Virus record (IMG/VR): IMGVR_UViG_3300022925_000005
Direction: 5' to 3' (one strand)
Source of the DNA: a virus
DNA: 64,000 nucleotides
Part shown: piece after piece, positions 4,760 to 49,461 of the stretch
Layout of the letters: the number at the start of each line of letters is the position of its first letter
Numbering within the stretch: position 1 is the first letter of the stretch
Program-made: the position numbers and the translations under genes
The notes under the pieces: model-generated
What the model saw: only the letters and a program-made list of their open reading frames with translations
Told to the model about the DNA's origin: nothing
Databases searched by the model: none

Positions 4760-4764
4760 CTCTT

Positions 4765-26848: not shown

Positions 26849-27531
26849 ACTATTCCTCTTTCAAATGGGTTAATATTATATTCCCCAAATAATTTATCTA
26901 ATTCGTTACTATATTCACTCATATTCCACTTTCCTTTATTGATGGCAGTTGCTATATATGGGAATATGATACTATCACAATGATATATACCTCTTTGCTT
27001 TTCATTACCTAACCTAACCATATAATGGTTATCATTAGGTTCAATTTCTTTCTCAAAGTCCCAAATATTTAATGATGGAACTGATTCTAACAAAGATACA
27101 AAATTATTTCGATTTATCAAAGTGGGTTGTATAGAAAATGTACTATTTACCAAAGTACTATCAATATCAGATGGTGGATTAGTTGAATTGGTATATATCA
27201 TCTTTATAGATTCAACTCTTCCGCTATTCACCAAATTATAATATCTCTGAATATAACTCATATCAACCTCATCAAATAAAATCATATCTTCATGTAGAAA
27301 TATAATAGTTTCTTCGTTTATCTGAGGTAGTGCTTCCTTCCATCGTTCGGTATATGGTTTAGTATCATCGTATATGATTCGTATCATATCGGATAATTGC
27401 GTATCATCTTCGTTTACTACAACATATATTTTGTTGTTGGGTAAATACTTTTTAAGTTGCCCAAAGAACATTGACCATACATCTTTCATATCTGTATGTG
27501 TGTAAACCACTATTGGTACATCTATTCCCAT
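26845..27531 (-). CDS. Glycosyltransferase-like protein
   Basis: FLHED, IWDFE, AINKGKW; glycan-island context. Confidence 0.55.
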   Translation of the reverse strand: MGIDVPIVVYTHTDMKDVWSMFFGQLKKYLPNNKIYVVVNEDDTQLSDMIRIIYDDTKPYTERWKEALPQINEETIIFLHEDMILFDEVDMSYIQRYYNLVNSGRVESIKMIYTNSTNPPSDIDSTLVNSTFSIQPTLINRNNFVSLLESVPSLNIWDFEKEIEPNDNHYMVRLGNEKQRGIYHCDSIIFPYIATAINKGKWNMSEYSNELDKLFGEYNINPFERGIV

Positions 27532-28247: not shown

Positions 28248-28873
28248 TACTCTATAACTTTATTATCTTTGAATACAGTAAACTCAGTCAAATCTCTATA
28301 ACCATTATCTTCACCCAAATCACTCATATGTTCTGGATAGTTTTGGAACATTGATAATCCATGTGCAGCTTGTTGTGGAGTCATATACATATTCCATCCG
28401 TGGAATGTGATATCATCATCTTTATAGTACTTTTCACTTCTACCTTCATAACGAGCTTTCTTAAACCAATCAGCTGCTTCAGCGTTATCGGTTAGAATCA
28501 TACCACCTTTCCAAATTGGAAGTAACTTTTTGATGTGGAATGATAATCCCATATAAGTTCCAGGTATGTACATATTTGATGTCAATCGTTTTGCGGCATC
28601 GTAGATGGGATATGGTTTCAATTGGTATAAACCCTTCCAATGGTTAGTTTCTGCTCTCTTATCGAAGATAACTTCACCACCAGCATGCACAATTGATTGA
28701 GGTACTGATAGATACGTTTTAGATGGAATGGTTACTTCCTTTACCTCATTGTATTTACAAATAAGGAATAGTGCGTTTGTACAACTGTCAACCGAAACAG
28801 CGTAAGGAGCGCCTGTATAATTAGCAATCTCCTCTTCAAACATTCGTACAATTTTATACGGATTGTGTAACAT
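28247..28873 (-). CDS. DegT/DnrJ/EryC1/StrS sugar aminotransferase (short)
   Basis: FEEEIA.Y.G, SCTNAL, DAA, SFHIKK..GGM PLP-lysine region. Confidence 0.8.
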   Translation of the reverse strand: MLHNPYKIVRMFEEEIANYTGAPYAVSVDSCTNALFLICKYNEVKEVTIPSKTYLSVPQSIVHAGGEVIFDKRAETNHWKGLYQLKPYPIYDAAKRLTSNMYIPGTYMGLSFHIKKLLPIWKGGMILTDNAEAADWFKKARYEGRSEKYYKDDDITFHGWNMYMTPQQAAHGLSMFQNYPEHMSDLGEDNGYRDLTEFTVFKDNKVIE

Positions 28874-28877
28874 ATTT

Positions 28878-29267
28878 TTAATCTTTTGTTAGTATATAAA
28901 ACTTTTTGGAAAATCCACAAGCTTCAAATAGTTTAATACTTGCTTCGTTATCCATTTTTACTTTTGCAAATGCGGTTGGCCATACCACCATACATTTATT
29001 AATCATAAACTTACCCACTCCTCTTCCTTGAAAATCAGGGTGAGTACATACTCTAATATCATCATCAATCACTCCCACATATCCAGCAGGTTCTCCATCT
29101 ACCAAAGCGATTCGGTAAAACTGAGAGTGATTACTCATATAAGATTCTTGCATCTCTTCAGTAATGTGAACTGATTTGATGAATCCATCTAATACTCTTT
29201 CATCGTTTCTGAGAACTCTTACGAATTCCCAATATGGTGGAGAACATTCTACTAATTCCATACACAT
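28878..29267 (-). CDS. GNAT acetyltransferase
   Basis: HPDFQGRGVG acetyl-CoA loop, NEASIKLFEACGF. Confidence 0.88.
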   Translation of the reverse strand: MCMELVECSPPYWEFVRVLRNDERVLDGFIKSVHITEEMQESYMSNHSQFYRIALVDGEPAGYVGVIDDDIRVCTHPDFQGRGVGKFMINKCMVVWPTAFAKVKMDNEASIKLFEACGFSKKFYILTKD

Positions 29268-30028
29268 ATCTTTTGTATATCTTGTCCACCTCTATAACCC
29301 CAAAATGCCTCTAAATATCCTCTATGAGTTGGCATATCCATCATTGGTGTTAAACAAGTCCCAATATCAATATAGGTATTATTAGGGAACTCTCTGAACA
29401 ACTGATATACTGCCAAGTTAGTAAATGAGGATGCTGAGAAAAGGAATACATGATTCTCAATATTGTTTTCTCTAATCCACTCAGCGATTTCTTCAATTTT
29501 TCCATAATCATTTATCATTGCGTTATAACCTACTCTAAAATCCTTTACAAAGAATGGTAACCTATCTAAGTTTGCATCTTCATGTCCAACAAATACACAA
29601 TCTCTACTATAAAAGATTGGTAGAATGTGTGTAATGAATATAGGGTAGTTTCCATTTACCCACAGATTTGCCCAAGTTAAGGATTCATCATCCCCACCAG
29701 CCAAATCAACTTGCCAATCAAATTGTTCCTTACCTACACAACAACTACAACTAATTCCTTTGTAATAATTGTGTTGTTTGTATTGAAGTGATTCAACTAA
29801 CTTTTGTTGATAGAATGAATGTTCCGTTGGGTCAAAGTGTTTGAAATCAGGTTGTTGATATATACCACCTTGCTTCTCATCACCTATCTGAATCACACCA
29901 TTACCCAAAACCAATTCTTTGTTTTGTAGAATGTACATTTCACCATCAGAATATCTAGAGAATGCAAAGTGTTGTTGATTCTCTAATTTGGTTTTGAAAT
30001 CTATAAAATGTTGCCTAAAGTTCTTCAT
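29252..30028 (-). CDS. GT-D-like glycosyltransferase
   Basis: FSRYSDGE N-term and IDIG C-term motifs. Confidence 0.6.
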   Translation of the reverse strand: MKNFRQHFIDFKTKLENQQHFAFSRYSDGEMYILQNKELVLGNGVIQIGDEKQGGIYQQPDFKHFDPTEHSFYQQKLVESLQYKQHNYYKGISCSCCVGKEQFDWQVDLAGGDDESLTWANLWVNGNYPIFITHILPIFYSRDCVFVGHEDANLDRLPFFVKDFRVGYNAMINDYGKIEEIAEWIRENNIENHVFLFSASSFTNLAVYQLFREFPNNTYIDIGTCLTPMMDMPTHRGYLEAFWGYRGGQDIQKICVWN

Positions 30029-31016
30029 CTCTTAATATTTTTCGTACTTTTTCCGATGTGTGACCATCACCATAAGGACAATTTTCACTAATATAAGGAT
30101 TTTCTATGAGTTTTCCAAATAAATCATACAAATCATTTGGTGAATCACATAAATGTAAATGACCCGTATCAATACCTTCAGGTCTTTCGGTTGTCTTTCT
30201 ACATACAATCACCTTCTTATTGAAGAATGAACCCTCTTCTTGCAATCCACCACTATCACTAATGATTAGATTTGATTTAATCAATGTATTTATCAAATGC
30301 CTATGTTCTAATGGTTCAACAACAGTTACATTCTTTAAGATACTCCTATGTTTCTTTACATTTGGATTTGGATGAATTGGAAGTACGAACTTATATTGTG
30401 GATAATCCACAGCCAATCGTTCTAATTGTTCAAACCACTTGTCCATCCAATGGTGGTTCTCCCTACGATGTAATGTGATTAGAATAATATTCTCCATCGT
30501 TGGTTTAGCAACCAAAAGTAAATTATCTAATACTGAATTACCCACTACATAAATTTCACCATGCACATTTTCATCTCTCAGATTTTGTGCTGATAATTCA
30601 GTTGGTGTAAAGTTAACATCAGCGATTCTAGCAATCATTTGTCTATAACCTTCTTCAGGATATGGGTGTTTTAAATCACCACTTCTTAACCCTGCTTCCA
30701 AATAGTAGATTCGGGTTTGTCTATTGAATGCGGCTAAAGCACATCCGAACGCTGAACCAGTATCACCTTGTACCAATACTCCTCTGAAATCTCCATTGGG
30801 AAATTGTAACATACAATCTGATATAATTGAGTCCAATCTATTAGAATTTTCTGATATGATTATTTTATAATCAACCTCCACATCTTTCAACAAATCAGTA
30901 TGTTGGCCGGTAAATAGAAGTTTGTATTCACTTCTATTCATAATTCTAATCAATGGTTTAATCTTCAACCATTCGGGTCTAGTCCCAAAACATAATAATA
31001 TTGGTTTATTTTTCAT
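30015..31016 (-). CDS. wecB: UDP-N-acetylglucosamine 2-epimerase
   Basis: GTRPE, TGQH, VQGDT, EAGLRS, PEE, TLHRREN, DSGGLQEE, PYGDG. Confidence 0.95.
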   Translation of the reverse strand: MKNKPILLCFGTRPEWLKIKPLIRIMNRSEYKLLFTGQHTDLLKDVEVDYKIIISENSNRLDSIISDCMLQFPNGDFRGVLVQGDTGSAFGCALAAFNRQTRIYYLEAGLRSGDLKHPYPEEGYRQMIARIADVNFTPTELSAQNLRDENVHGEIYVVGNSVLDNLLLVAKPTMENIILITLHRRENHHWMDKWFEQLERLAVDYPQYKFVLPIHPNPNVKKHRSILKNVTVVEPLEHRHLINTLIKSNLIISDSGGLQEEGSFFNKKVIVCRKTTERPEGIDTGHLHLCDSPNDLYDLFGKLIENPYISENCPYGDGHTSEKVRKILRDEEL

Positions 31017-31776
31017 TTACTAACCTCCATCCTTTATTTCTTTGTTCGTGAAAATATTGATTCATCAATTGTTTGAATGGTGTACCTTCTACACTAGCCT
31101 GGTTTGATTCCCATAGTGAGTTAGCATCACCACCATACTCAGCACCTTTAATACTACCCCAAAGTGATTTATCAGATTTAGGATGTGGTGGTACGAATGT
31201 TGGAATACCAGCGTATTTTTGTAACATATATGAGAAGTGCATATCCTCACCACAAGTATTGTATTTTGGGTCTGGTAATTCTCTTACCATATGAGATAAC
31301 CATTCTTTCTTAAAGAACCAACTATGCCCAACTAAATCAACTTGAACAGTCCTATCATTGTTACCAGTTTCAGGCCAGCCGAATCTGAGGTAGTGTTCAT
31401 AATAAGATGAGTGTTGTGGTGGTAATGGGTTTGGGTACAATAACCCAACTGAACCCAATAAACCTTCTCTTTCATTCATAGTATTCATACAATTCTCCAA
31501 CCAACGTTCACCTGGTATTGTATCATCATCAAATACTACTACATATGGATTTCTAGCGTTCATAGCAAAGTAGAATCTTGCCCAAACTCCAAAGTTGTAA
31601 TTACAATAAGCTACTGGGATTTCACTCCCAATATCATAATTCAATAAATCATTATCACCCGGATTGTTGTACCATAATAAAATCTCATCAGGTGGTACAG
31701 TTTGATTTTTTAACGCTTCCAATTGTTCGTTGAGGTTATCTCCTCGTTTGTAACCATTTAATACTGCCGTAATCAT
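31006..31776 (-). CDS. GT-A glycosyltransferase
   Basis: YKR...QT, VFDDD, GED. Confidence 0.75.
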   Translation of the reverse strand: MITAVLNGYKRGDNLNEQLEALKNQTVPPDEILLWYNNPGDNDLLNYDIGSEIPVAYCNYNFGVWARFYFAMNARNPYVVVFDDDTIPGERWLENCMNTMNEREGLLGSVGLLYPNPLPPQHSSYYEHYLRFGWPETGNNDRTVQVDLVGHSWFFKKEWLSHMVRELPDPKYNTCGEDMHFSYMLQKYAGIPTFVPPHPKSDKSLWGSIKGAEYGGDANSLWESNQASVEGTPFKQLMNQYFHEQRNKGWRLVNEK

Positions 31777-32753
31777 ATTTTATCTTTCATATAGTTTAAC
31801 CAAATGTTTTTGGTGTAATAACTCTCATATTGTTGTCTTGCCAACTTACTACATTGATTATAGAAATCGTTATCATCTCTCAATTTCTGAGCAAGTTCTC
31901 TAGCACCTTTCACATCATCAACTTCAACTGAAGTTAGTGGATGTAGTGTTTTTTGAGTATCTACTTTGATGTTACCAATTACAGGTATTCCAAAGTATGC
32001 ACAATTAAGTGAGAATGTACCAGCTGCTACAGTTGGCATTAGATGAACCCCATATTTGAACTTAGATACTTCCCTCATCCAATCAATCCAAACCATTCTA
32101 TCAAAGTGATTCAAATCTTCCATTGCACCTTCGTTATTTCTCTTAGCATGAGATTCTTGTCCCCAAATAGGTACACCAAATTCGGTTGCTACCATATAGG
32201 ATTCGAATCCACCATACCACCTTGCAAAGTTACCACCAATCAAAACCTTATCTTCTGGTTTTGCTGAAATACCTCTAATTAAATTATCAATCATTAAGGT
32301 TCTCATCACTTCCACTTTTTTGTTTGGTAGTAATCCTTTGTAGTAGTTTACATCAGATTCATTGTGTGCAAAGATACCATCGGTTTTTGCTAAAAAGTTG
32401 TAGAATTGAATCTGGTCTACAATCTCATAATCATTCCACCACCAATGCGGTCCTTCTTGAATGTAATATACTTTTTGATTTACACTCTTCAAAGTATCTA
32501 CTATTGGTTCGTTTAGATATTGAGAAGCTGGGTTAACCCCATCTCCTATTCTAGAACCTTCAGCTGATAGGAATAACTTACCTTTTGGGAAGATTATAAA
32601 CACAACATCATATCCACTAACCGATTGGTATTTTGCTAATGGATAATGAACAGCGTTTAGAGCGTTCATCCAAGCAAACTCAGTTCTAGCGTTTGGATGT
32701 TCGTTGGGAATAGTTCCCTCAAATCCCATTTCCGTTAGAAAAGCTACTTTCAT
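31773..32753 (-). CDS. GT-B-like glycosyltransferase
   Basis: AGTFSLNCAYFGIPVIG C-terminal GT-B-like motif; context. Confidence 0.6.
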   Translation of the reverse strand: MKVAFLTEMGFEGTIPNEHPNARTEFAWMNALNAVHYPLAKYQSVSGYDVVFIIFPKGKLFLSAEGSRIGDGVNPASQYLNEPIVDTLKSVNQKVYYIQEGPHWWWNDYEIVDQIQFYNFLAKTDGIFAHNESDVNYYKGLLPNKKVEVMRTLMIDNLIRGISAKPEDKVLIGGNFARWYGGFESYMVATEFGVPIWGQESHAKRNNEGAMEDLNHFDRMVWIDWMREVSKFKYGVHLMPTVAAGTFSLNCAYFGIPVIGNIKVDTQKTLHPLTSVEVDDVKGARELAQKLRDDNDFYNQCSKLARQQYESYYTKNIWLNYMKDKI

Positions 32754-33382
32754 ATCGTATTATATAATTCGTTTTGTCTTTCCTGTCTTTCAATCTCCTT
32801 TGGATGATAGATGGCGAATGGTTCTTCTAATGGTAGAATAGTTAAAGTATTATAACCTTTAATTCTTTCATGTACTTTACCTTCCCATTCTATTACTGAT
32901 GTTCTTCGATAGATTCTAGTTTGTAAATCAGGCCAATTAACCCAACCTTCATTATTAACATTCCATCCCCATTTTTTAATATGCCCATCAGTCAAACCTT
33001 CAACTGTGTTTACTCTTGGAACAAAGAATAAATCAATATCTAAATTTGCCTCTAACAATTCATGCATATTAGCAACTAAATACTCATTTGGAATCTCATC
33101 AGCATCAATTTGAAAAATGAAAATCCCTTTAGCATGATTCTTTAAGTTGTTTTTAAATGATGCAAAATCTTTGTTAAGTGGAAAATTAATCACACTTACA
33201 TTTGAATGCAATTGTTCAATAATTTTTAAATAATCAATAACTTCTTTGGTAGCTCCATCGGTATCATATTGAATCAAAATCTCATCATCCGATTGAATTC
33301 TGGGATGGAGAAAGTTTACCAACTTTGTAATCTCATTTAATTCATTACAAACAGTAATTGCGTATGTAACATTAATATCCAT
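32750..33382 (-). CDS. Glycosyltransferase family 2
   Basis: TVCNE, FQIDADE, WEGKVHE. Confidence 0.85.
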   Translation of the reverse strand: MDINVTYAITVCNELNEITKLVNFLHPRIQSDDEILIQYDTDGATKEVIDYLKIIEQLHSNVSVINFPLNKDFASFKNNLKNHAKGIFIFQIDADEIPNEYLVANMHELLEANLDIDLFFVPRVNTVEGLTDGHIKKWGWNVNNEGWVNWPDLQTRIYRRTSVIEWEGKVHERIKGYNTLTILPLEEPFAIYHPKEIERQERQNELYNTI

Positions 33383-33848
33383 AATATTGCTTTAGTATAT
33401 TGTTTTTTAAATAAAATTCAGTAGCATATTGAATACCATCCAATTTATATGTTCTATATGCAGCTCCCTTTGCAACAAAATCTTTGTTGTTTTTTATGTA
33501 AGAATCATAAACCTTATTACCACCTAAATCCATTGGAGTTGCAAATTCATATAAAGGTATTTTAGTTCTATCACCTTCAAATAATGCCTCATCATCACCC
33601 TTTGATAATTTCTTAAACCAATTTAAGAATTTAACAGGCTCAATGTTTGAAAGTTTCAATGCAGATACCTTTCGTTGATATACACCAGTTACGAATATCA
33701 ATGTTTCATCATCACCTCTTAAATTTGTTCGCTTCCCCTCCGTATATTTGTAAGTGGAAATCTTATATAACCCATAGGGTTGGATTTCGGTTTTTGCTAC
33801 TCGCTCACCTTTATCCATCATACCCTTATATCTTAATGCGTAATTCAT
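33372..33848 (-). CDS. Hypothetical protein
   Basis: ORF track; AYRTY motif. Confidence 0.7.
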   Translation of the reverse strand: MNYALRYKGMMDKGERVAKTEIQPYGLYKISTYKYTEGKRTNLRGDDETLIFVTGVYQRKVSALKLSNIEPVKFLNWFKKLSKGDDEALFEGDRTKIPLYEFATPMDLGGNKVYDSYIKNNKDFVAKGAAYRTYKLDGIQYATEFYLKNNILKQYYGY

Positions 33849-35146
33849 TATACTTTATTTAGTTTTGGAAGTTGCATTTTTTCTTTGTTTAACTTAGGTA
33901 AGTTAAATGGTTTTTGTTGTGGGATTGATTTCACATATTTGTTCATCATTTCTTCAAAAACTTCATCCATTTTACTTAAACTAAAGTTTTTTTCTATGTT
34001 TGTTTTTAACCCAGCTGAGTTAGATAAATACGAATCATATTCATTGAATACCTTATACATCTTATTGGCTGCATCTGAGTAGTTTACAGTAAACCACTTA
34101 GCTTCTTTAAGTAAGAACTTATCTGCTGCTGATTCATCTACATTAGTTAACTGACCATCTAAGAAAACAGTGTGTTCCTTTGGTAGGAAATCAACGTGTC
34201 CACTCCAACCACTAACCATAATCGGTTTACCAGTCAATGCAAACTCAGCCAAAGGTCTACCATATCCCTCACCTTTGGTAAATGATACCATTGCTTTTAC
34301 TTTAGGATGATTATATAGTTCACTCATTTCAGAATCATCTAAATCACCATGAAGTAAATAAATCTTAGGTAAATCATCACCAAACACATTGATAATGTTT
34401 TCAATTTTTTCTCTCGTATTTTCTCTATCAATAACAGAGAAACCAGCGTGAGATGTTTTAAGGATAAGACCTGGTCTTTTATCTTTTGGTAGATATTTGA
34501 ATACCGTAGCAAATGTTTTAATAACCATACCCACATCCTTTCTATCTTGCCCTAAACTACCCTTCAACCAATGTCCTACATATAGGAAGTTGAAATCAGT
34601 TTCTAATACACCATCTAAAATATCAACTTTAGAATCTGATGGTAGGTAACGTTCTAAATCAACTCCTTCAAATAAAACTTCAACCGGCTTTGTGATTCTA
34701 TGTTCATTTACAATTTGTCCCGTTTGACTATTCTTTTCTTGATATGCCGTTTGAGTCATAATGTTCTTTGTGAACTCTGATGGTACGATTATTAAATCCA
34801 TCTTATTTGAACCATCTATAAATTCTTTTGGAATTATAGTAGTTTCAACCCCTGCGGTAATACCAATGTTAAAGTTACCCTTCGGTTCGAACTCATTAGC
34901 AACTGACATTTGCATAAAGATATCCGGCTTTCTATCTAACTTAGTTATTACATTTGGAAATACCATTTTCCCAAATTCACTATCAGGTTTGATTTGATTT
35001 TGTGGAGTATTTCCCCATCGAGTTGGTACAACTTTTACATCGTACTTATCCATTTTAAACAAGCTTCTCAAAATATCTCTCGCATGGTCTCCATAACCAC
35101 TTCGAGTAAATACAGGTGCTTGATATACTAATAAAGGTTTATTCAT
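33848..35146 (-). CDS. Glycosyltransferase family 4 (GT-B)
   Basis: SGYG, RK, GEGYGRPLAE, SGH.DF. Confidence 0.85.
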   Translation of the reverse strand: MNKPLLVYQAPVFTRSGYGDHARDILRSLFKMDKYDVKVVPTRWGNTPQNQIKPDSEFGKMVFPNVITKLDRKPDIFMQMSVANEFEPKGNFNIGITAGVETTIIPKEFIDGSNKMDLIIVPSEFTKNIMTQTAYQEKNSQTGQIVNEHRITKPVEVLFEGVDLERYLPSDSKVDILDGVLETDFNFLYVGHWLKGSLGQDRKDVGMVIKTFATVFKYLPKDKRPGLILKTSHAGFSVIDRENTREKIENIINVFGDDLPKIYLLHGDLDDSEMSELYNHPKVKAMVSFTKGEGYGRPLAEFALTGKPIMVSGWSGHVDFLPKEHTVFLDGQLTNVDESAADKFLLKEAKWFTVNYSDAANKMYKVFNEYDSYLSNSAGLKTNIEKNFSLSKMDEVFEEMMNKYVKSIPQQKPFNLPKLNKEKMQLPKLNKV

Positions 35147-35152
35147 AACTTA

Positions 35153-35476
35153 TTATCCTTTGTATGCTTTAATTTTTTCTATTTTTCTACTCTCCATATT
35201 GAAATATAATACATCCATTACCTTAATAGTTTCTGATTCTGTGTGTATTAATATCTCATTGTATGTACGATTTTCAAACTGATTACATTCAATTAACTCA
35301 AATGTCAAATCACTTTCAAACATAAGTGAGTTCATTTCTAATACATTTGTACTACCAAACCACTCACCATTCCAATCATACAATTCAACATCAGATGCGT
35401 ATTGTAGTGATAGTAAATTTAAATCTTTTTTATTTAGATTTTTAAAATATTCTTTCGAAGATACTGTAAAATTCAT
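35153..35476 (-). CDS. NTF2/SnoaL-like protein
   Basis: YF..LN.KD....YA.DV.L.DW...I..I.AY pattern. Confidence 0.6.
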   Translation of the reverse strand: MNFTVSSKEYFKNLNKKDLNLLSLQYASDVELYDWNGEWFGSTNVLEMNSLMFESDLTFELIECNQFENRTYNEILIHTESETIKVMDVLYFNMESRKIEKIKAYKG

Positions 35477-35480
35477 AATA

Positions 35481-36872
35481 TTAGTTTAATTTAAATAATT
35501 CGAATCGTTTACGTGGTTTCCAATTTTCGAAAGTACCTTCGATACCATCTACTAATGTACTACACATATTTTCTACACTCAATCCAGACTCACCGATAAA
35601 TGAATCCCTTCCAACTTGTCCGTTTGATTTAAGAACTTCTTTAGGAGTGTTGTACATTTCTTCCATAGCAGTTGCTACATCATATACATCTACTTTATCA
35701 TCCCAAATGTATGGGGTTGGTACTGAACCAGCCATAGTTTGTGCTCTACTCCATACAGGTCTAGCCCACACACCACTTTCTAATTTATCTTCCCAATCTC
35801 TCCACTTATGTAAAGAACCCAATTCTTTGTAATCTTCAGAAGTAACCAACTCACCAGTTTCGTTGTATCTGAAACCACATTGGTCTTGCAAACCACCAGT
35901 TACGTTAACAATGATTGGTGTACCAGCCATTACTGATTCTGCGGTTGTTAAACCAAATCCTTCATTACCAGCAATGTTGATTGTTACATCTCCGATGTTA
36001 TATAGGTAATTAAGTTCTTCAGTAGTTCTTCTCTTATCTGAGAATATGATGTTACAATCAGTAGCTAATGTGTTATGTACTGCTGGTAAATCCGTACCAT
36101 TGTTATCCACCGGTTGAGTGTGCATTAATAATGCCACTTTCTTAGCTTTTTCTTCACCAATTCTATCACAAAACTCTTTGAATGCCATAATCACATCAGA
36201 TGGTTGCTTTCTACGAATGTTACGATTTGACCAATAGAATATGAAATCATACTCTTTATCTTTTAGTATTTCAGAACGAAATTCAGATGGTACATCCGTT
36301 GGGAAGTATTCAGTTGAGTTGATACCATGTGGTACATATGATACTTGCCAATCTTTGTGAGGTCTCCACGTTGGTTTATCAGTTCTATTGGTTAGACGGG
36401 ATACAATACCATAAGTTTGACGAGAGATACACCCAATCCAATCACAACTTTCGTAGTAATTTCTATTGTATAGTGGGTCTGGTAAATCATCCCAAATTGC
36501 ATAGAATAGAATTGGAACATTTTGTCTTACCTCATGCTCCATATCGTATAACCATGTCCAATAACGTGGGTCAGTAAAGTGTAAGATGGCATCAGGTTGT
36601 TCTGAGTTGATTAATTGTCTAATCAAACCTTGGTCACCATAACCACTCCAAGGGAGTATTTTAACACTAGCATCTTCTACACCAGTTCTTTTTTGTATAT
36701 CTAATGATACATCTAAAATCTTTCCCTTCTCAGGGTGGTCAATTGCGGCTCCTACTTGAAACCAGTCGTATTTATCAACAGTACCCATAACCAATGCCTT
36801 AGACATGGTAGCGATACCACTTGCCATCCTTAAATCATCGGATAGTAATAGAATCTTCTTCTTTTTACTCAT
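35481..36872 (-). CDS. Glycosyltransferase family 4 (GT-B)
   Basis: SGIA, VPHGI, NRNIRRK, NEGFGLTTAES..AGTP. Confidence 0.88.
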   Translation of the reverse strand: MSKKKKILLLSDDLRMASGIATMSKALVMGTVDKYDWFQVGAAIDHPEKGKILDVSLDIQKRTGVEDASVKILPWSGYGDQGLIRQLINSEQPDAILHFTDPRYWTWLYDMEHEVRQNVPILFYAIWDDLPDPLYNRNYYESCDWIGCISRQTYGIVSRLTNRTDKPTWRPHKDWQVSYVPHGINSTEYFPTDVPSEFRSEILKDKEYDFIFYWSNRNIRRKQPSDVIMAFKEFCDRIGEEKAKKVALLMHTQPVDNNGTDLPAVHNTLATDCNIIFSDKRRTTEELNYLYNIGDVTINIAGNEGFGLTTAESVMAGTPIIVNVTGGLQDQCGFRYNETGELVTSEDYKELGSLHKWRDWEDKLESGVWARPVWSRAQTMAGSVPTPYIWDDKVDVYDVATAMEEMYNTPKEVLKSNGQVGRDSFIGESGLSVENMCSTLVDGIEGTFENWKPRKRFELFKLN

Positions 36873-40039: not shown

Positions 40040-41260
40040 TTATCTACCTACTTCACTCAATCTCTGAGCCTTAAAATCTTCCCAACTTACACCAACTCCA
40101 TCTAAATAGAATAAGTGGTCGGTTTTCAATCTACCATCATCATGTAACTTAGAGTATCTCTTAATTGCTTGTCTCTTCCACCAATTGTTAATGTAATCAG
40201 TACCCTCTGAGAACTTCTTCTTCATTACCAATTCAGATTCTTCAATTTCTGAACGTAGGAACTCATTACCATTCTCATACATCTGAGCGAAATACACACC
40301 TCTTTTGAAACCATGATGATATTCAGATTGTTTGATACCACATTCTTTGAATATCTGTCCAAGAATCTTTTGTTTGATACCACTTACAGGTCCACTAGCT
40401 CCCTTTCCGGTTCCCATAGATTCACCATTACGAATTCTTTCATTGGTGATTGCAGTTTGATACCAATCAGCACGATTCTCTTTAATCCATTGGTGCCAAG
40501 GTTCGTAGAATTCATCATCAGGTTTCAAAGAAATCTTCCCAGCGGATTCCCCCAACGTTTTGAAGTGAGGGATTCCGTTATACTGAGAATGTATTCCATA
40601 AAGGGAAGTTGTACCAACAGCTATCAATGTTTGCCCATACTTTCTTTTCCAAAATTCCCTTACTTCGGGAACTGTAGTCATCATAGCAGTGAGTTTACCA
40701 CCTAAGAAATTGTAACCTAAAGGTTGGGTACAAACAATAGTGGAAGCGATAGTTGTATAGTTCAACTTTCCCTTTTTGAATTTATCTTCTTTGGTCCATC
40801 CGATGTATTTATCTCTAACACCCATTGAAGTAACATCTGAAGCGAGGGATACCAATCCCAACAATTTACCACTCGTCCTATCTTTGATAAAGATTTTCAC
40901 ATTACGACCAGGGTTAGCTGTCCAACTCATAGTGTGAATCATCCTACGAAGATGAGTCCACTTTGTAGATGCGTTTGCATCATCCTCAACTATCTCAACA
41001 TAAGGGTCTAACGATTCTATCTCTTTGATAGTTTGTTCCTTATTATTGATATCAGTTGGTTTCCATTGGAAATCGTAAAGAGTAGCGATTTGGGATTTAT
41101 CTCGAATCATAGAATCCTCTTGCAGCTCAACCCACTTTTTGTATAATGTTTGCTCTTCTACACTCATTGTCATAAGGTAGTCCATATTTTCAATGAGTTT
41201 TCTTTTCTCATCTTCAAATACAAATTCAGGTTTTGCTGGTTCAGTATCCCAAAAGCTCAT
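40040..41260 (-). CDS. DUF4338/DruA-like protein
   Basis: PGRN, LGLVSLASD, RD.YIGW, QPLGYNFLGGKL, TTSLYG..SQY. Confidence 0.7.
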   Translation of the reverse strand: MSFWDTEPAKPEFVFEDEKRKLIENMDYLMTMSVEEQTLYKKWVELQEDSMIRDKSQIATLYDFQWKPTDINNKEQTIKEIESLDPYVEIVEDDANASTKWTHLRRMIHTMSWTANPGRNVKIFIKDRTSGKLLGLVSLASDVTSMGVRDKYIGWTKEDKFKKGKLNYTTIASTIVCTQPLGYNFLGGKLTAMMTTVPEVREFWKRKYGQTLIAVGTTSLYGIHSQYNGIPHFKTLGESAGKISLKPDDEFYEPWHQWIKENRADWYQTAITNERIRNGESMGTGKGASGPVSGIKQKILGQIFKECGIKQSEYHHGFKRGVYFAQMYENGNEFLRSEIEESELVMKKKFSEGTDYINNWWKRQAIKRYSKLHDDGRLKTDHLFYLDGVGVSWEDFKAQRLSEVGR

Positions 41261-42339: not shown

Positions 42340-44856
42340 TTAAAATGAGAAAAACTTCTCTGCCGTTTTTGTTGATGATAAAACTGCTCCCCAATTCAAT
42401 GCTCCATAGAAATCTTCTAATTTCTTTAGGAGTTCTCTTTCGAAGATTTTATCATAGTTAATATACGTTGTTACTAAGTCCATTATTTCCTTTGGGTCAT
42501 CGTAACCATTTAATGCTACTGCATCCAATCCAAATGGATTTTGTTTTAGATATACCCATTTAATCTTATCACCATCTCTTAGTGGTGCGTAAGTTTTATC
42601 TAAATTCCAATGTTTCAATAATTGATTATAAGCGATTGATGCTTTTACGTGCGCTGGACAACCTGATGGGAATTGGAACATTGCTGTTTGTTCTTTCTTC
42701 TTTGGCATATACTTTGATAAGTTTTTCACAGCCCCAGCTTTAGCAATCTTAACTACATCCATATTTACCAAATCATTTTTGAAATTGTAAATCTTATCAG
42801 TAAGTTGTTCTTCAGTATCACCTCTTAGAATTTCAATAAGTACTTCACTCATAAATTCTCTAAATGCGGCTGGATATGATGAACGTACAACATCCAATCC
42901 CTTTACATCCAACTTATCAACAGCCACACCATTATCTGAGATAATCCATTGTGCGTATCTTTTCTTAGCAATCCAAATACCAGCTTTAGATACGAATTCC
43001 TTCTTAATCTCAAATCGGTGTTTATCAATGTTGAATACTTTCTTAGCCAATATATCATAGAAGTTGTTTAGGTAATCCTGCACTTCACCAGCTATATCAT
43101 TCACAAAACCAGCAATAGTTTCCTGGTCATTATCCTTCCAATTTGGAATACGTTTATCCATTAGAGGTGCCGCTGAAAAGAATACCGAATCCGTATCAAT
43201 ATAGATGTTAGAATCTGCCTCAGGTGTTCCCAACTCCTTATTGTATTTGATGTTAGTCATATCTGCAGTTGATTTAATCACAGTTTGACCTGTTGTTGTT
43301 ACCGCAGTTGCGTTATCCACATCATAGAATCGGAATGCTGGTAATCCCAATACCCCATATAATGAGTTTAGAAGAATCTTTTGTACTAACTGTCTCTTCT
43401 TATAGAATGCGTACTTTTCTTTATCACCTTCCTCACCATACTTCTTTTCCAACTTTCTGAATTCTACCCTTTGTGAGAACCACAAATCCAAAATATCAGG
43501 AATACAACCTGGCGTATCGGTTCTATACATTACACCATTAGATGCGATTGAGTATTTACTTTCATCAAATAACTTTTGTAAGTTATCTCGCTTTATCCAA
43601 TTCTCACCAATTTGATATTCATCAACCTCACCCTTGATGAACTTCTGAGCATCCCAATCCTTAATCTTACCAACTTTGGTTTCAGGCGAAATATTGATAC
43701 TCATAATGATGGATGGGTATAGAGATGTTAAATCCAAATCATAAATCCATTCATACTTTCCAACAATAGGTGCTTTTACATATGCCCCAATGAACTTCTC
43801 TTCATTGTTATCCTTCATAGCCTGCATTCGTTCTCTTCTATCCGCAGGTTTGTTAGGTGCTACGATGTTCTTACGTTTAAGATACGTTAACAATGCCCCT
43901 TCCAAATACTTTGATGAATAAACGAAATCTTCATAAGGAACATGCCCAGCGTGGCAGATACCCCTAGCGGTATCAATGAACTGAAGTTTCTTATCAAAAT
44001 CAACAACCAATTCAACATCCACTAAGTTATACTCAATGAACTTTTCAATATCGGTTGCAAATAAGATATCCAAATTCCCCTCATATTCAATCTTACCTCT
44101 ACCCAATTCTCGTTGAGCAATAGAATCCAATCGATATGAATCTAATTCCGAATAAGTAAAGTTCTTATACAATGAAAGGTAATCCAAATAAGATACACCA
44201 GCCATAAAGTAACGTTTACGATAAGGAGACCAGAAACATTGTCCGATTGGTGATAATCGATTTGCATGACGTTCACCCAACAATCGTTTGATACGATTGT
44301 ATAACATAGGTGTATCGAAATAATCAATGTTCCAGCCAGTTACAATAGTTGGATTAATCATCTCATATAACTCCAAATACTTCATCAACATATCCTCTTC
44401 GGTTCTGAAAGGAAGTACAATTGCCTTATCGGTTTTCTTTTCCAACATTTCACCCTTCTTATCCATAACCAACACCCAATATTGATTGGTTGCTGAATCA
44501 TGTAATGCGATTGATGTTAGTTCGTTTTCTGCTTTCTCTGGGTCAGGTAATCCACTCTCCATCTCACACTCAATATCATATGTAAGTGTAATGTGTCCTT
44601 CTGATGGTAAATCTGAGTCCGTATAAGTATCTACCAAAACTCTCGTAGTTTCAGGTACATCACTTTCGAATAGATTTACATCATCCTTTGTGTACTTATA
44701 AATCTTAGTTACCTTATCACCATACAAAGTGGTATATTCACCATTTGCTGTCTTTTCATAAGCGTATCGAGTATAAGGAAAGGAACGATATCCCAATTTA
44801 TCATCCCAAATGTGAACTAAGTTCTTTTCTCTTTGATAATATGCGTTTTGGTACAT
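42340..44856 (-). CDS. Family B DNA polymerase
   Basis: Exo DIE, GWN..FD, YNLVD; pol DLTSLYP, KILLNSLYG, YIDTDS, KKRY. Confidence 0.97.
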   Translation of the reverse strand: MYQNAYYQREKNLVHIWDDKLGYRSFPYTRYAYEKTANGEYTTLYGDKVTKIYKYTKDDVNLFESDVPETTRVLVDTYTDSDLPSEGHITLTYDIECEMESGLPDPEKAENELTSIALHDSATNQYWVLVMDKKGEMLEKKTDKAIVLPFRTEEDMLMKYLELYEMINPTIVTGWNIDYFDTPMLYNRIKRLLGERHANRLSPIGQCFWSPYRKRYFMAGVSYLDYLSLYKNFTYSELDSYRLDSIAQRELGRGKIEYEGNLDILFATDIEKFIEYNLVDVELVVDFDKKLQFIDTARGICHAGHVPYEDFVYSSKYLEGALLTYLKRKNIVAPNKPADRRERMQAMKDNNEEKFIGAYVKAPIVGKYEWIYDLDLTSLYPSIIMSINISPETKVGKIKDWDAQKFIKGEVDEYQIGENWIKRDNLQKLFDESKYSIASNGVMYRTDTPGCIPDILDLWFSQRVEFRKLEKKYGEEGDKEKYAFYKKRQLVQKILLNSLYGVLGLPAFRFYDVDNATAVTTTGQTVIKSTADMTNIKYNKELGTPEADSNIYIDTDSVFFSAAPLMDKRIPNWKDNDQETIAGFVNDIAGEVQDYLNNFYDILAKKVFNIDKHRFEIKKEFVSKAGIWIAKKRYAQWIISDNGVAVDKLDVKGLDVVRSSYPAAFREFMSEVLIEILRGDTEEQLTDKIYNFKNDLVNMDVVKIAKAGAVKNLSKYMPKKKEQTAMFQFPSGCPAHVKASIAYNQLLKHWNLDKTYAPLRDGDKIKWVYLKQNPFGLDAVALNGYDDPKEIMDLVTTYINYDKIFERELLKKLEDFYGALNWGAVLSSTKTAEKFFSF

Positions 44857-44874: not shown

Positions 44875-44908
44875 TTCAAATATACGAAATATATTTGGTT
44901 AATCAAAG
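44875..44908 (-). promoter_or_regulatory. Bacteroidetes-type promoter for PolB
   Basis: Minus TTTGATTAACCAAA...CGTATATTTG. Confidence 0.8.
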
Positions 44909-46023
44909 GATTTTCTTGCCATATTTACAAAGTTCTCTTCGATGTTCCAACTCTTTAGTTGATTCTCCCATAGAAGAGCTTCTGCAATGTGAGTTACATC
45001 AGGTCTTTGGATTTCACCATCTAATAACTTTACAACCATTTCTTTAAACTCATCTTTACTATTGTAAAGTAATGGATAATCATCATCCACCATTTCAGAA
45101 TAGCAAAAATCGTTTGGTAATAGATATGGTACACCTCTACTCAAACCATCGGTTGCACTCATACTCCAAGCTGAATAACCTTGGAATGTACCTACTCCAA
45201 AATGAGCCTTAGATAATTGATTTAGATATACATCTCTATCTGAGTGTCCAATGTATTTGGTATAAGGTTTACCCATATCTTTTAGGGATGTGTAAACTTT
45301 GAAATCTTGTCTTTCTTTCCACAATTCATCCATAGTTTCAAAGAACCACTCTGAACCAGTATAAACACCTTCTCTATGATTAAATACAATTGTTTTATCA
45401 TCATATTCACCAGATGGTGTTGCTGAATCACATCCTAAATACCAAGGTTGAATAATCTCTTCTAATTTATCAGTAATATGTGGTTGGAATGTTTCGGATG
45501 CTCTTTTAATAACCAAATCCTTTACCCATTGTGAGTTTACACCACAAACTTTCATTTGTAACATACCCTTTACGTTTCTCCAAAATGAGTTATCATCTCT
45601 AGCTCCATTATCTTTGATTTCCCACCAATGACAGTAACCAATGATTGGTTGCATTTTATTATAGATGCGTGAAATCTTAAACTCATTAGTCCATTCAGGT
45701 AAATGGCTCCAAACTAAGTTGAATTCTCCATTATATTTCTCAATAGTTTTCTCAAAGAATTTATGGGGATAATCTACTCTCATTTTAGCCGGAAAACAAT
45801 CTAGTGGGTCCATTTGTAACATTGTTACATTTGGATATTCAAAGGTATTGATAATACCTGGATGGTTATGCATTCCACCACCTGGATATGGAAGTACCCA
45901 CTCCCACTCTTTACCGATTTGTGTGTTATCTAAAAAGGACTTAAACACCAATAGGAACGAATCCCTATTGATGTCTTTTACTTGTCCAAAGTTTGTGTAA
46001 TTTGGTATAACTAATACTCTCAT
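44899..46023 (-). CDS. GT-B glycosyltransferase, candidate DNA-base glycosyltransferase
   Basis: IVFNHR, Y...L, WSMSATDGLSRGVP C-terminal GT-B motifs; sits in replisome, not in glycan island. Confidence 0.65.
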   Translation of the reverse strand: MRVLVIPNYTNFGQVKDINRDSFLLVFKSFLDNTQIGKEWEWVLPYPGGGMHNHPGIINTFEYPNVTMLQMDPLDCFPAKMRVDYPHKFFEKTIEKYNGEFNLVWSHLPEWTNEFKISRIYNKMQPIIGYCHWWEIKDNGARDDNSFWRNVKGMLQMKVCGVNSQWVKDLVIKRASETFQPHITDKLEEIIQPWYLGCDSATPSGEYDDKTIVFNHREGVYTGSEWFFETMDELWKERQDFKVYTSLKDMGKPYTKYIGHSDRDVYLNQLSKAHFGVGTFQGYSAWSMSATDGLSRGVPYLLPNDFCYSEMVDDDYPLLYNSKDEFKEMVVKLLDGEIQRPDVTHIAEALLWENQLKSWNIEENFVNMARKSFD

Positions 46024-47543
46024 TAATCTATAATTTGTTTATTTGATTTTCTAATATTAGCTCTTTTATTTCTAAGAACTAAATTTTCTTTTGAAGTATC
46101 GTTTCCACCATCTCTAGCTTCTTGATGGTCACCTTCTATTATAGAGTTAGAACCCATTAATTCTTCAAAAGTAAACTCATTACCACTAGCATCCATCCAA
46201 TCATTCTCAATAGCAGCTTCTAACTTATCATTTTTGGTGTAATTTTTAGTATCTACTAACGATACAACACCAGATGCGAATAAGTTATCGTAATCATTAT
46301 TGAATTCCTCAATCATTAGATTACTTCTAAGTTGAATATCATCTGATTTTTTAGCTCCACATTTTCTTTTAAATGATTCTGAATTTGTCATTTTCTTACC
46401 TGTAATGGGTTCAACAACAATATTACCATCACTATCTTTAATATAATAATCGGCTTCTCTTAACTTAGATTCCATTTTCATAAACCAATCCATAAATTTG
46501 TTTAGATTACCAATCTTAACCTTCTTTTGGAAAGAGTTTAGAGGATGTGATGAAGTTTCTAATATTGTAAGTAATATGAATAAGTTATCTAAAAGTGTTC
46601 TTTCAAATTTTACACTTGAAACTGTGTTTGTTAAATCCACTACTTTAGATACTACTTTTGTTGATTTTTTTAATTTTGAAGTAGATTGTCCATCTAATCC
46701 TACCACAGATGATTGTAAATCCAATTGGGATTCTTTTGGCCATTTATAGATATCGTTCTTCAAAACATTATAGTAATAACTAATCCACTCAGAAACCATC
46801 AATGAATCACCCTTCTTTAAAAGTGAATATGCACTTGATAAGTTTTTTGTATTATTGAACATAGCTTCCAACAAAGGATTATCATTCATATAACTCATTA
46901 AAAATCTATTAAATTTAGATGGTACAATGATTCTTCGTTCGTGATTATTCCAAGGTTCACCAATGTTAGTGTAAATCGTTACATCTACCATATCTTGTAG
47001 TGTTGCCTTATTTATCATTACTAATGTTAGTGGAGTTTCCAATACAGAATTTTGAGTCTCTTCAGGCATATCCTTAAACTTAACACCTTTCATATCATAC
47101 GCAATGGGAGTTTTACCATCTCTGTTGATATAATCAATTACATTTTTATCTAACGTAAATTTTGATTTAAGAAAATCCTCATATGTTTTTACTCTATGTT
47201 GACCATCAATGTTTAGATACTTCTTACCTTTTGATTTTAAATCAGATAGATAATCGATAGTTTCCTTTATTGCCGAATATTGTGTATCATCCTCATCATA
47301 ATCTGAGATGATTCCATTACAATAATCTAAACATCCTTCTATACTAATAAGAACTATTGTATAAATGTTAGAATGACCCTCAAAACAAGCTCTCATATGT
47401 TCAGCTTTAGTTTGGTCATCCCATTCGGATAACAATCTTTGAAGTTGGTGTTTATCTACATGAATGTAGGGAAATAATTCTCTGAGTTTGTTTAGAGTTC
47501 CACCCGTTAGAACTTTTGCATCAATTGATTTTTTAAATGCCAT
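46023..47543 (-). CDS. DGQHR/DUF262 (ParB-like) plus C-terminal HNH protein, GmrSD-like
   Basis: LNIDGQHR, TNIGEPWN..E, C-term EGDH...GG.....NL......N..KSNK. Confidence 0.75.
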   Translation of the reverse strand: MAFKKSIDAKVLTGGTLNKLRELFPYIHVDKHQLQRLLSEWDDQTKAEHMRACFEGHSNIYTIVLISIEGCLDYCNGIISDYDEDDTQYSAIKETIDYLSDLKSKGKKYLNIDGQHRVKTYEDFLKSKFTLDKNVIDYINRDGKTPIAYDMKGVKFKDMPEETQNSVLETPLTLVMINKATLQDMVDVTIYTNIGEPWNNHERRIIVPSKFNRFLMSYMNDNPLLEAMFNNTKNLSSAYSLLKKGDSLMVSEWISYYYNVLKNDIYKWPKESQLDLQSSVVGLDGQSTSKLKKSTKVVSKVVDLTNTVSSVKFERTLLDNLFILLTILETSSHPLNSFQKKVKIGNLNKFMDWFMKMESKLREADYYIKDSDGNIVVEPITGKKMTNSESFKRKCGAKKSDDIQLRSNLMIEEFNNDYDNLFASGVVSLVDTKNYTKNDKLEAAIENDWMDASGNEFTFEELMGSNSIIEGDHQEARDGGNDTSKENLVLRNKRANIRKSNKQIID

Positions 47544-47560
47544 AATATAATAATTTAAAT

Positions 47561-47633
47561 GGTATCGTTGTTGAGGTGATACCTTACCTCATATTTAACA
47601 ATTTTGATATCGTTATAGAGTGATATCAACTCT
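47561..47633 (-). ncRNA. Tandem H-type pseudoknot 5' leader element
   Basis: AGAGU/ACUCU with UGAUAUC/GAUAUCA, then UGAGGU/ACCUCA with GGUAUC/GAUACC; loops AUAAC and ACAAC. Confidence 0.65.
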
Positions 47634-47640
47634 TTTACTT

Positions 47641-47683
47641 TGTAAATATAAGAAAAAGATTTGAATATACCAAATCTTTTCTT
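47641..47683 (-). promoter_or_regulatory. Bacteroidetes-type promoter within long inverted repeat
   Basis: AAGAAAAAGATTTG-AATATAC-CAAATCTTTTCTT; minus TTATATTTACA. Confidence 0.7.
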
Positions 47684-47690: not shown

Positions 47691-48494
47691 TTACCAAAAA
47701 TTTATTTCGTTTGATTCTTCTGGTGCGTATGTTGTGTGATGAACAATATCAGTATTATAATCGTTCAAATCTTTTGGATAAGGTCTGATTTCATGCTTTA
47801 ATCTACTCATCAAATCCTTTTTCTCTTTTTTGTTAGTAGCAAGTATCTGAATGTATCGATGTTTAGGTGGTTCTTCTCTTCTCCAAAATTCTTTGTAACC
47901 ATCTTTACCTATTTCCTTTCTAAGGTGTTCCAAATTACCACTTCCCCAATTATTATAAACTGTCCTACTATGAATCCAATCATATGGGTCATTTGATAGT
48001 GAGATACCCCAATTTGGCATCAACGCGATGTCCGTGTTCAAACCTTGATAAATCCAATTGGTAGCTTTGTAAATACCACCAACATGCCCTTGCCCATTAT
48101 TAGCGTAAGATAGAAGTACTTTGATGTTTTTATCGTTATCCTTTAACCATTGGAATGTTTTACCTAAAGCACAACTTTCAATGTTCGAACCATAACCATC
48201 ATCTACATATAAACGAGTAAGTTCTAAGATATTATCCTTAGTTAATCCTTCACAAACTGAAGTAGATGCCTTAGCACCAACTGGGAATCCATATACAGCT
48301 ACACCTACTAATTCTTGGTCATTTCCAAATACATCCTTTTCATCCATCGTATGATATATACCCAAAGCGTACCTACATGCTGTCCAAGCATGAGTGTAGT
48401 GCTTTTTGATAATCATATCCTTAGCGATAGATTTAGCTATTGGTGCTACACTAATTTTAGTGGCATCACAATAATGTTTTCCTTCTTCCTTCAT
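47691..48494 (-). CDS. Mom-like DNA-modifying GNAT protein (paralog 2)
   Basis: HY, GVAVYG.P, LELTRL, NIES, SYAN..GH.G.IYKATNW.YQG, KHRY. Confidence 0.8.
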   Translation of the reverse strand: MKEEGKHYCDATKISVAPIAKSIAKDMIIKKHYTHAWTACRYALGIYHTMDEKDVFGNDQELVGVAVYGFPVGAKASTSVCEGLTKDNILELTRLYVDDGYGSNIESCALGKTFQWLKDNDKNIKVLLSYANNGQGHVGGIYKATNWIYQGLNTDIALMPNWGISLSNDPYDWIHSRTVYNNWGSGNLEHLRKEIGKDGYKEFWRREEPPKHRYIQILATNKKEKKDLMSRLKHEIRPYPKDLNDYNTDIVHHTTYAPEESNEINFW

Positions 48495-48677: not shown

Positions 48678-48712
48678 ATACAAATATACGAAATTAATTT
48701 GAAACCTCCAAA
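48678..48712 (-). promoter_or_regulatory. Bacteroidetes-type promoter
   Basis: Minus TTTGGAGGTTTCAAA...CGTATATTTG. Confidence 0.8.
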
Positions 48713-49461
48713 TTTATTGGCTCCATTTTTATAATTTCTTCTACAAATTCTTCGTTTTCTTTTGGGTATGGAAATATTGGATGTTTTATGGTTTTCATCA
48801 ACTTCCTTCTTATACCACCTTTTGCCAATATGTACACATATCTATGTTTTCTTGGATTCTTGCGTATCCAAAATGTGGATGAACTCATCTTTTGAATTTC
48901 ATTTGGATTGTTTGTTCCGAATTTGACATAAGAAGTTCTTTGATGATGCCAATCACCATCTTCTTCCCAACGGAAATCCCAACTATCGTTAAATCTGAGT
49001 TTGTTACCTTGATACAACCAATTCGTTGCTTGGTAAATTGTTCCACAATGTCCCTCTTTAGGGTCTGAGTAAGATATTAATCCCTTTATCTTAGGAGCGT
49101 TTTCTCTTAACCAATCAAAAGTTTGAGATAGGAACCAACTTTCAATATTTGAACCATATCCATCGAATACAAATAATCGAGTAAGTTCTAATACCTCATC
49201 TCTTTCTAATAATGGTGTGATTGATTGTCCAGCACTTCTACCAATTGGGTCTCCATAACAAGCTACACCAATTAGTTTATCTTCAACACCACTAAAGAAT
49301 GGATGCTCTTCTACTTCGGAGGTAAATAAACCAATAGCGTAGGATACCTTTGTCCACAATCCACTATAATGGTTGTTTACAATGATATCCTTCGCTACCG
49401 ATTTCGTTATGAGTCTTATCGATAGTTTTGAAGTATCGCAATATGTTTTGTTTTCTTTCAT
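48694..49461 (-). CDS. Mom-like DNA-modifying GNAT protein (paralog 1)
   Basis: HYS, GVACYG.P, LELTRL, NIES, SYSD..GH.G.IYQATNW.YQG, KHRY. Confidence 0.82.
   Translation of the reverse strand: MKENKTYCDTSKLSIRLITKSVAKDIIVNNHYSGLWTKVSYAIGLFTSEVEEHPFFSGVEDKLIGVACYGDPIGRSAGQSITPLLERDEVLELTRLFVFDGYGSNIESWFLSQTFDWLRENAPKIKGLISYSDPKEGHCGTIYQATNWLYQGNKLRFNDSWDFRWEEDGDWHHQRTSYVKFGTNNPNEIQKMSSSTFWIRKNPRKHRYVYILAKGGIRRKLMKTIKHPIFPYPKENEEFVEEIIKMEPINLEVSN

Follow-up and report, generated by a model that had tools for sequence, protein, structure and literature searches.

Nucleases of the GmrSD family, such as BrxU and Eco94GmrSD, fuse a DUF262 domain (QR, DGQxR and xxxxN motifs) to an HNH domain with a D-H-N-N motif (PMC4619093, PMC8565348), and the phosphorothioate-sensing effectors SspE and DndI likewise carry a DUF262 NTPase, with an HNH domain in SspE, beside a separate self-marking module, SspE being the precedent for a nuclease that works with a self mark (PMC9646914). 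In jumbo phages, Mom-family modifiers lie next to a restriction endonuclease (REase), an arrangement proposed to act against host or superinfecting DNA (PMC7824862). Here we analyse a locus of the IMG/VR virus record IMGVR_UViG_3300022925_000005, a stretch of 64 kb (hereafter the window, to whose full length all coordinates refer), in which a 506-amino acid (aa) DUF262+HNH protein and a 374-aa glycosyltransferase (GT) of GT-B fold are encoded next to each other on the minus strand. A first-pass annotation of this DNA had read the two genes as a co-evolved, sugar-based restriction-modification pair. Comparison with related loci instead shows that the nuclease gene occupies a slot in which recombination at gene boundaries replaces one occupant by another, while the GT keeps constant modifier-like partners; the nuclease is preceded by a covarying RNA leader. 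Mom-plus-nuclease modules (PMC7824862) and the GmrSD family are known kinds of system, whereas the RNA element is undescribed and the acceptor of the GT unexplained.

The slot reaches from a phage promoter to the start codon of the GT gene. Among 58 close-clade loci it holds the allele of the window in 12 and one of eleven other classes in 37, and it is empty in seven and truncated in two; it was informative in 56 of them, and the 12 allele classes were set at the 50% identity level. The gene for a family B DNA polymerase (PolB) lies downstream in almost all close loci. Within backbones that are 95-99% identical, occupants are exchanged at the slot promoter or start codon at one end and at the ATG of the GT at the other. 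The occupant classes are scattered over the GT tree, and 12 pairs of loci combine GTs at least 96% identical with different slot classes; one GT occurs in identical form with two unrelated occupants (L046, L047), and four GTs of 98-99% identity go with four different classes. Conversely, nucleases 92% identical stand beside GTs that are 57% and PolBs that are 60% identical. Spearman coefficients of 0.73 for GT and PolB, 0.21 for nuclease and PolB and 0.39 for nuclease and GT, from pairs that are not independent, indicate that nuclease identity is decoupled from both GT and PolB. These swaps speak against a co-evolved pair, and the modifier and the nuclease are not matched. The expected co-occurrence of the two genes held in part: the GT directly follows the 506-aa nuclease lineage in 33 of 39 loci (counted as found, not dereplicated), a link that persists in rearranged genomes and at identities as low as 40%, but from the GT to the nuclease the link is not specific, as the GT also occurs with eleven other classes or an empty slot.

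A distant clade, whose GTs bear a tail discussed below, has the same slot, placed between a DruA-family gene and the GT. In its 41 loci, ten of them with an empty slot, the occupants comprise the nuclease lineage, a set of alleles that we call group II, ParB-like fusions, a GHKL ATPase fusion (L204:1544-3157), an N6/N4 methylase and other genes without assigned function. The slot is therefore old, and NTPase-nuclease and modification genes are overrepresented in it. Group II alleles share the motif order of the 506-aa lineage, but alignment is confined to motif-sized segments, in the expected order, with a global score of 7.4 for motif II (control maximum 4.5) and a local E of 0.028 for motif III; the score of the HNH segment lies inside the control range. 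Close relatives whose slot is empty often encode, after PolB instead, a GHKL ATPase fused to a region that weakly matches Mrr-type nucleases (L040:11759-13363; L039, L041-L044). If the slot is, as it appears, a phage 'weapon slot', GmrSD-like enzymes that normally serve host defence are here exchanged between phage genomes, and its alleles could form a ready panel of modification-sensing nucleases, possibly with different targets.

The present occupant (46023-47543, minus strand) is in architecture a GmrSD/BrxU/SspE-like DUF262+HNH enzyme. Its sole match in standard libraries was the PADLOC NsnA profile (E 1.4e-8); Pfam PF03235 and DUF1524 gave no hit, Pfam, PHROGs and NCBIfam gave no significant match for it or for the 374-aa protein (an Ntox17 match was under cut-off), and neither tblastn against cultured-phage records nor a sequence search of the PDB returned a match. 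In its AlphaFold model (mean predicted local distance difference test score, pLDDT, 84) the best fold match was BrxU (Z 7.5, root-mean-square deviation (rmsd) 14.6, 298 residues aligned), with SspE (Z 6.5) and DndI in second and third place and then the HNH domain of Cas9 (Z 6.3), although the whole-chain matches to BrxU, DndI and SspE are weak (Foldseek E 0.02-0.1, Z 7.5 and 6.5). Taken by domain, the N-terminal ParB/Srx-fold part aligned with the SspE N-domain (Z 6.5, rmsd 3.8, 145 aligned), and the last 70 residues matched Cas9 HNH with an rmsd of about 3 over some 69 residues. The motifs that define GmrSD enzymes are QR, DGQQR-like, FxxxN-like and D-H-N-N (PMC4619093), and their counterparts here, Q35-R36 and D113-R117, are invariant or nearly so in 29 homologues: the DGQHR NTP-binding motif (residues 113-117; 47193-47207, minus strand) departs once, from H to N. 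At the FxxxN place T189xxxN193 is invariant, the F being replaced by T, and so are all four residues (D472, H473, N487, N496; D/E-H-N-N) of the C-terminal HNH domain (about residues 435-506; 46026-46241, minus strand), a domain that aligns with Cas9 HNH. With a ratio of non-synonymous to synonymous substitution (dN/dS) of 0.05-0.07, the lineage is under strong purifying selection. The earlier call of a DGQHR (ParB-like) plus HNH protein of GmrSD type is thus borne out, the HNH site is intact, and the protein is probably an active nuclease directed at foreign DNA.

Compared with the GmrSD family, the protein differs in being phage-encoded, in having DGQHR for DGQQR and TxxxN for FxxxN, in escaping Pfam GmrSD_N detection, and in its minimal HNH at the very C-terminal end, its exchangeable slot and its RNA leader. 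No Ssp or Dnd genes were seen in the neighbourhood, and, unlike for SspE and DndI, the candidate marks are an acyl group (Mom) or a sugar and the setting is not host defence. The jumbo-phage Mom plus REase arrangement differs in that here the nuclease is a separate, swappable DUF262+HNH gene and the module includes a GT and DruA. In the ESM Atlas the neighbours of the protein are GmrSD_N+HNH proteins (scores 0.95-0.97, many in all-viral clusters), GmrSD_N being annotated in 22-100% of the members of these clusters; phage DUF262+HNH genes are accordingly widespread but unnamed.

Upstream of the nuclease gene, the 'structured leader' of the first-pass annotation folds better than its shuffles (z -2.3), and it almost certainly consists of two tandem H-type pseudoknots. 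Unit 1 (47606-47633, minus strand) has a stem S1 of 5 bp, a loop L1 of 1 nt, a stem S2 of 6 bp and a loop L3 of 5 nt; unit 2 (47561-47591, minus strand) has an S1 of 5-6 bp, an L1 of 2 nt, an S2 of 6 bp and an L3 of 5-6 nt, and ends 17 nt before the start codon. Across 13 distinct sequences of unit 1, 99.3% of cells are paired and 6 of 11 pairs are changed on both sides (covariation 0.55, 0/500 shuffles); for unit 2, 16 distinct sequences give 99.4% paired, five pairs changed on both sides and 0/500 shuffles, with five pair types at one S1 position. As the sequences are related, these shuffle counts should not be read as probabilities. In each unit both stems vary on both sides and tolerate wobble pairs, slid controls collapse, and one relative carries the identical S2 change in both units. 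A strict pseudoknot scan of the 64-kb minus strand returned one structure, unit 2, against 0-1 in shuffles, and the exact unit-2 pattern was found in 15 of 2.9 million IMG/VR contigs, each of which encodes the 506-aa nuclease lineage. Across relatives, 16-20 nt separate the last stem from the start codon. Rfam gave only chance matches for the leader, and the element appears previously undescribed and confined to genes of this lineage. One nuclease subclade has four shorter pseudoknot-like units with A-rich loops instead (L028:2740-2861; L087, L127, L128, L129, L145), and this leader travels with its nuclease gene across different backbones. The four-unit form bears some resemblance to preQ1-like riboswitches, and could conceivably be one.

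Three other readings of the leader were set aside: a simple two-hairpin fold and a DNA palindrome serving as operator both fail to account for the independent covariation of the S1 stem, one position of which shows five pair types, and a PolB operator is not favoured, for although the loops have a terminal AAC, as does the loop of the T4 gp43 operator, the leader tracks the nuclease and not PolB. Its simplest function would be that of an autoregulatory translational operator, to which we give an even chance; an RNA antitoxin, a 5' stabilizer or a ligand sensor is possible. The T4 gene 32 translational operator likewise consists of an H-type pseudoknot within a phage 5' leader, with A/U-rich sequence ahead of the start codon, and a 2010 review described it as perhaps the sole viral pseudoknot that serves translational autoregulation (PMC3014915); here, by contrast, two tandem units, or four shorter ones, lie 17-20 nt ahead of the start of a nuclease gene, and the operator role is predicted. 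Type III ToxI arrays also combine a promoter, repeated H-type pseudoknots of similar size and a potentially toxic nuclease gene (PMC8860590), but in our locus the two units are diverged, there is no terminator-like site, the protein is a DUF262+HNH enzyme rather than a ToxN/CptN/TenpN RNase, and no ToxI match was found in Rfam, so that the locus does not have the type III toxin-antitoxin layout. With covarying tandem pseudoknots that Rfam does not match, the leader stands as a new RNA element before a nuclease gene. In the leader of a 625-aa allele (L025, ~1870-1945), another, longer pseudoknot with two 7-bp stems can be drawn by eye on a single sequence.

The constant modifier-like partners of the GT, which the first-pass annotation missed along with the behaviour of the slot and the pseudoknots, are two Mom genes and one DruA gene. 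The Mom-family GNAT genes, both on the minus strand, lie upstream of the slot, the first (47691-48494; Pfam Mom E 4.7e-45) forming its conserved left boundary and the second (48694-49461; E 9.5e-44) beyond it; both are present in 4/4 near-complete close relatives. In more distant relatives the DruA/DUF4338-family gene (40040-41260, minus strand; Pfam DruA E 8e-21) adjoins either the GT or the slot. Gene absence was assessed with Pfam profiles in the near-complete relatives of the window (five genomes). No synthase of a hydroxylated base (hydroxymethylcytosine (hmC), hydroxycytosine (hoC) or hydroxymethyluracil (hmU), or TET plus methylase) was found there, although divergent enzymes could escape such profiles, and four of the five carry a single, canonical-looking ThyA. 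With no known hydroxymethyl-base route found in these relatives, the T4 model of hmC glucosylation does not seem to transfer, and a group installed by Mom or DruA is the only candidate acceptor for the GT that we can see. A probable 2-oxoglutarate (2OG)-Fe(II) oxygenase gene precedes the Mom genes in some relatives (L010:3386-3952; L004, L012, L017); its Pfam family occurs in two of the five near-complete genomes and is hence no universal acceptor source.

The GT itself (44899-46023, minus strand) is a GT4-like enzyme and the core gene of a family that is almost wholly viral. Its structure model (pLDDT 87.6) confirms the proposed GT-B fold. Of the anticipated likeness to T4 DNA glucosyltransferases, a match did emerge (HY126 DNA GT, Z 21.9; T4 alpha-GT, Z 18.7), but small-molecule GT4s (MshA, BshA, sucrose-phosphate synthase) scored higher, with Z up to 28.5. 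It is distinct from the GT4s of a glycan island elsewhere in the window (E 4e-102 vs 0.002-0.004). T4 alpha- and beta-glucosyltransferases, AfhG of HY126 and the 5mYOX-linked GT-Bs are also phage GT-Bs encoded in replication clusters, sometimes with a GT-A (10.1101/2023.12.21.572611; PMC13326640); the GT of the window shares 8-11% identity with the solved enzymes, much of its family has a winged-helix-like tail, and the hydroxymethylase, hydroxylase, TET or C5 methylase of those systems was not found in the near-complete relatives. The tail, basic and recognized by sequence pattern with a weak HTH_24 match (E 0.23), belongs to most of the distant family members (~450 aa), whose neighbours include DruA with a clamp loader, gp32, or an N6/N4 methylase with ParB. 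In the cultured Arthrobacter phage Kitkat, gp88 and gp93 are family members (E 3e-24 and 3e-34; both within L170:38767-42698) beside HNH, ParB and methyltransferase genes. That distant homologues combine a winged-helix-like tail with methylase, ParB or HNH neighbours makes a DNA-acting GT plausible, and on this basis we think that the enzyme probably does act on DNA. Widespread in phages, showing signs of DNA binding and lacking a known acceptor route, this GT-B family points to an undescribed base modification, and Kitkat and BeatusComedenti, cultured Arthrobacter phages carrying family members, are open to analysis now. In Kitkat, 95% of sequencing reads align to one strand (PMC5513430), a bias that might reflect unusual DNA. 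Seven loci have a PLOD-type GT-A gene and a 92-109-aa gene inserted directly before the GT-B gene (L032:7245-7994, Pfam GT_PLOD E 1e-27; L001, L031, L037, L049, L050, L056); the GT-A could attach a further sugar.

Domain content, selection, slot exchange and RNA structure are observed, and the explanation of the whole that we prefer, at just under an even chance, is a fixed self-modification module combined with an exchangeable, RNA-regulated nuclease against foreign DNA. The locus would then belong to a module for DNA modification and conflict that lies within the replisome cluster of huge phages of Bacteroidota type. Its fixed part, the two Mom-family enzymes, the DruA-family protein and the GT-B, would probably mark phage DNA after replication in a generic way, not tailored to one nuclease, while the variable part would be the single cassette slot, from promoter to GT start codon, that holds exchangeable conflict genes. 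The occupant in the window would be an NTP-driven DUF262+HNH nuclease, most likely turned against the DNA of a co-infecting phage or the host, in which NTP hydrolysis gates HNH cleavage and the marked self genome is spared in the manner of SspE or BrxU. Occupant turnover probably stems from diversifying selection by rival phages or host inhibitors, and the pseudoknot leader may be bound by the dimeric enzyme, which would cap its own level. That the sugar is the protecting mark is doubtful.

A number of observations weigh against this explanation. The near-complete relatives lack TET/JBP, a C5 methylase, a second thymidylate-synthase homologue, QueC and TGT/DpdA, and with these genes not found, hmC, 5-methylcytosine (5mC) and deazaguanine acceptor routes are not evident. 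The fold of the GT is nearer to small-molecule GT4s than to T4 alpha-GT; this leaves its substrate undecided, because phage GT-Bs that are proven to act on DNA are similar to MshA and PglH too, and the same study judged the ~65% of phage GT contigs without a base-route neighbour to be less likely DNA modifiers (bioRxiv 10.1101/2023.12.21.572611). Moreover, the GT of the window is tail-less and net acidic (about -13, a value calculated for a homologue of 99% identity), one family member lies in a Marinimicrobia cellular context, and a 49%-identical GT (L068:8001-9476) lies next to bS21 at a strand switch of the structural region with no Mom, PolB or nuclease nearby. On the side of the nuclease, 6 of the 39 lineage loci have no adjoining GT, homology of group II to the 506-aa lineage was not significant in profile comparisons, and the 607- and 614-aa occupants (L002:779-2602; L031:5141-6985) carry Gln at the position of the HNH His and may be nuclease-dead. 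The leader, finally, is absent from basal members of the nuclease lineage and from one derived member (L126), and is therefore dispensable.

Of the competing explanations, the cognate pair with matched GT and nuclease specificities has in its favour the persistent adjacency of the two genes in 33 of 39 loci, their common promoter and the intact catalytic residues, but near-identical or identical GTs with unrelated occupants, nucleases 92% identical with divergent GTs and a slot that can be empty make it highly unlikely. Better placed, though still unlikely, is a type IV weapon of BrxU/GmrSD kind against the modified DNA of rivals, with a self genome devoid of target marks and the GT a mere neighbour. 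BrxU is the top fold match and cuts 5mC, 5-hydroxymethylcytosine (5hmC) and glucosylated 5hmC DNA without being toxic (PMC8565348), cytosine-modification genes were not found in relatives, and allele turnover suits changing targets; this explanation leaves unaccounted for, however, the persistence of the slot beside the GT in two distant clades and the retention of a dedicated RNA regulator by a non-toxic enzyme. There is also a slim chance that the slot harbours a selfish element, a freestanding homing-type endonuclease that exploits a tolerated insertion site and whose expression the pseudoknots restrain. Exchange is precise at gene boundaries, recent spread has crossed backbones of 57-60% identity, and genes for GIY-YIG-like enzymes and endonuclease VII have also entered this region; yet strong purifying selection, flanks 95-99% identical up to the boundaries with no allele-linked target-site divergence seen, and the methylases and GHKL ATPases that occupy the same slot all speak against such an element. 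Nor is an NTPase domain known in homing endonucleases.

A comparably small probability attaches to a GT whose acceptor is not DNA but a protein, glycan or metabolite, the DUF262-HNH proteins being in part non-catalytic sensors or helpers of modification enzymes. The best fold matches and the lack of a known base acceptor agree with such a GT, the missing HNH His in two allele types agrees with a helper, and ParB-type activators of phage DNA-modifying enzymes are reported to exist (PMC13229309); against this stand the winged-helix-like tail and DNA-enzyme neighbours across the family, the separation from the glycan-island GTs and the invariant HNH of the window lineage. A sugar-based but non-cognate form of restriction-modification, in which the GT acts on a Mom- or DruA-made base, the mark shields against all DUF262+HNH occupants and the nuclease is checked by binding the pseudoknots of its own mRNA, seems improbable as well; its base route would need no hydroxymethyl-pyrimidine, and the pseudoknots would be an RNA operator or antitoxin for a DNase.

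The two open reading frames (ORFs) and the TAATG stop/start overlap that joins them (46021-46025) are real, although the overlap is not special, as one-base stop/start overlaps occur at five gene junctions among the window ORFs of at least 100 aa. Both promoters that had been proposed were recovered with a custom motif: one lies before the nuclease cassette (47674-47643, minus strand; TTTG ... TATATTTA) and is kept before the slot gene in close relatives, and the PolB promoter overlaps the GT stop codon (44907-44877, minus strand). The motif, TTTG..TATATTT[AG], occurs in 15 copies on the minus strand of the window against one on the plus strand, and we take it to be of Bacteroidota sigma type; sigma-70 and terminator scans of the window stayed at chance level. 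PolB (42340-44856, minus strand; profile searches and locus survey) adjoins the GT as described and is its constant downstream neighbour in the close clade. A 'discrete unit' between the two promoters does not generalize, since no terminator-like site was found in the GT-PolB interval, the GT overlaps PolB directly in many relatives, and the conserved module also takes in the Mom-family genes upstream and the DruA-family gene downstream. PolB is split in L047 (9106-12616, around a 275-aa frame) and L048 (9106-11603), which suggests an intron or inserted endonuclease, and GIY-YIG-like genes adjoin the first Mom gene and the GT in L001, L028 and L048.

All genes of the window, whose G+C content is about 33%, lie on the minus strand, and they include those of a T4-like replisome (PolB, clamp, clamp loader, DnaB, NrdAB). 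DNA near-identical to it comes mainly from salt-marsh metagenomes, and its relatives are records of 180-270 kb; bS21, encoded in three of the five near-complete ones, together with this size class links them to huge phages predicted to infect Bacteroidetes, of which a bS21 gene in a genome of 180-330 kb is a mark (PMC9723584). RNA contigs of three metatranscriptomes span parts of both genes and none the leader, and are blind to strand, start and level. The glycan island (22695-36872), with GT2-like and GT4-like genes, a UDP-GlcNAc epimerase-like gene, an aminotransferase and a HAD-nucleotidyltransferase fusion as read from sequence, is a possible source of sugar donors. A MoxR-type AAA ATPase and VWA gene pair lies at 3326-6966, and a homologue of the ATPase is found upstream of the nuclease in L137 and L138. 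Ribonucleotide reductase genes, too, are swapped for distant versions among otherwise close relatives, as in the L059:324-5634 region (nrdA 568 aa, nrdB 425 aa) and in L039, L040 and L066 (618-aa gene).

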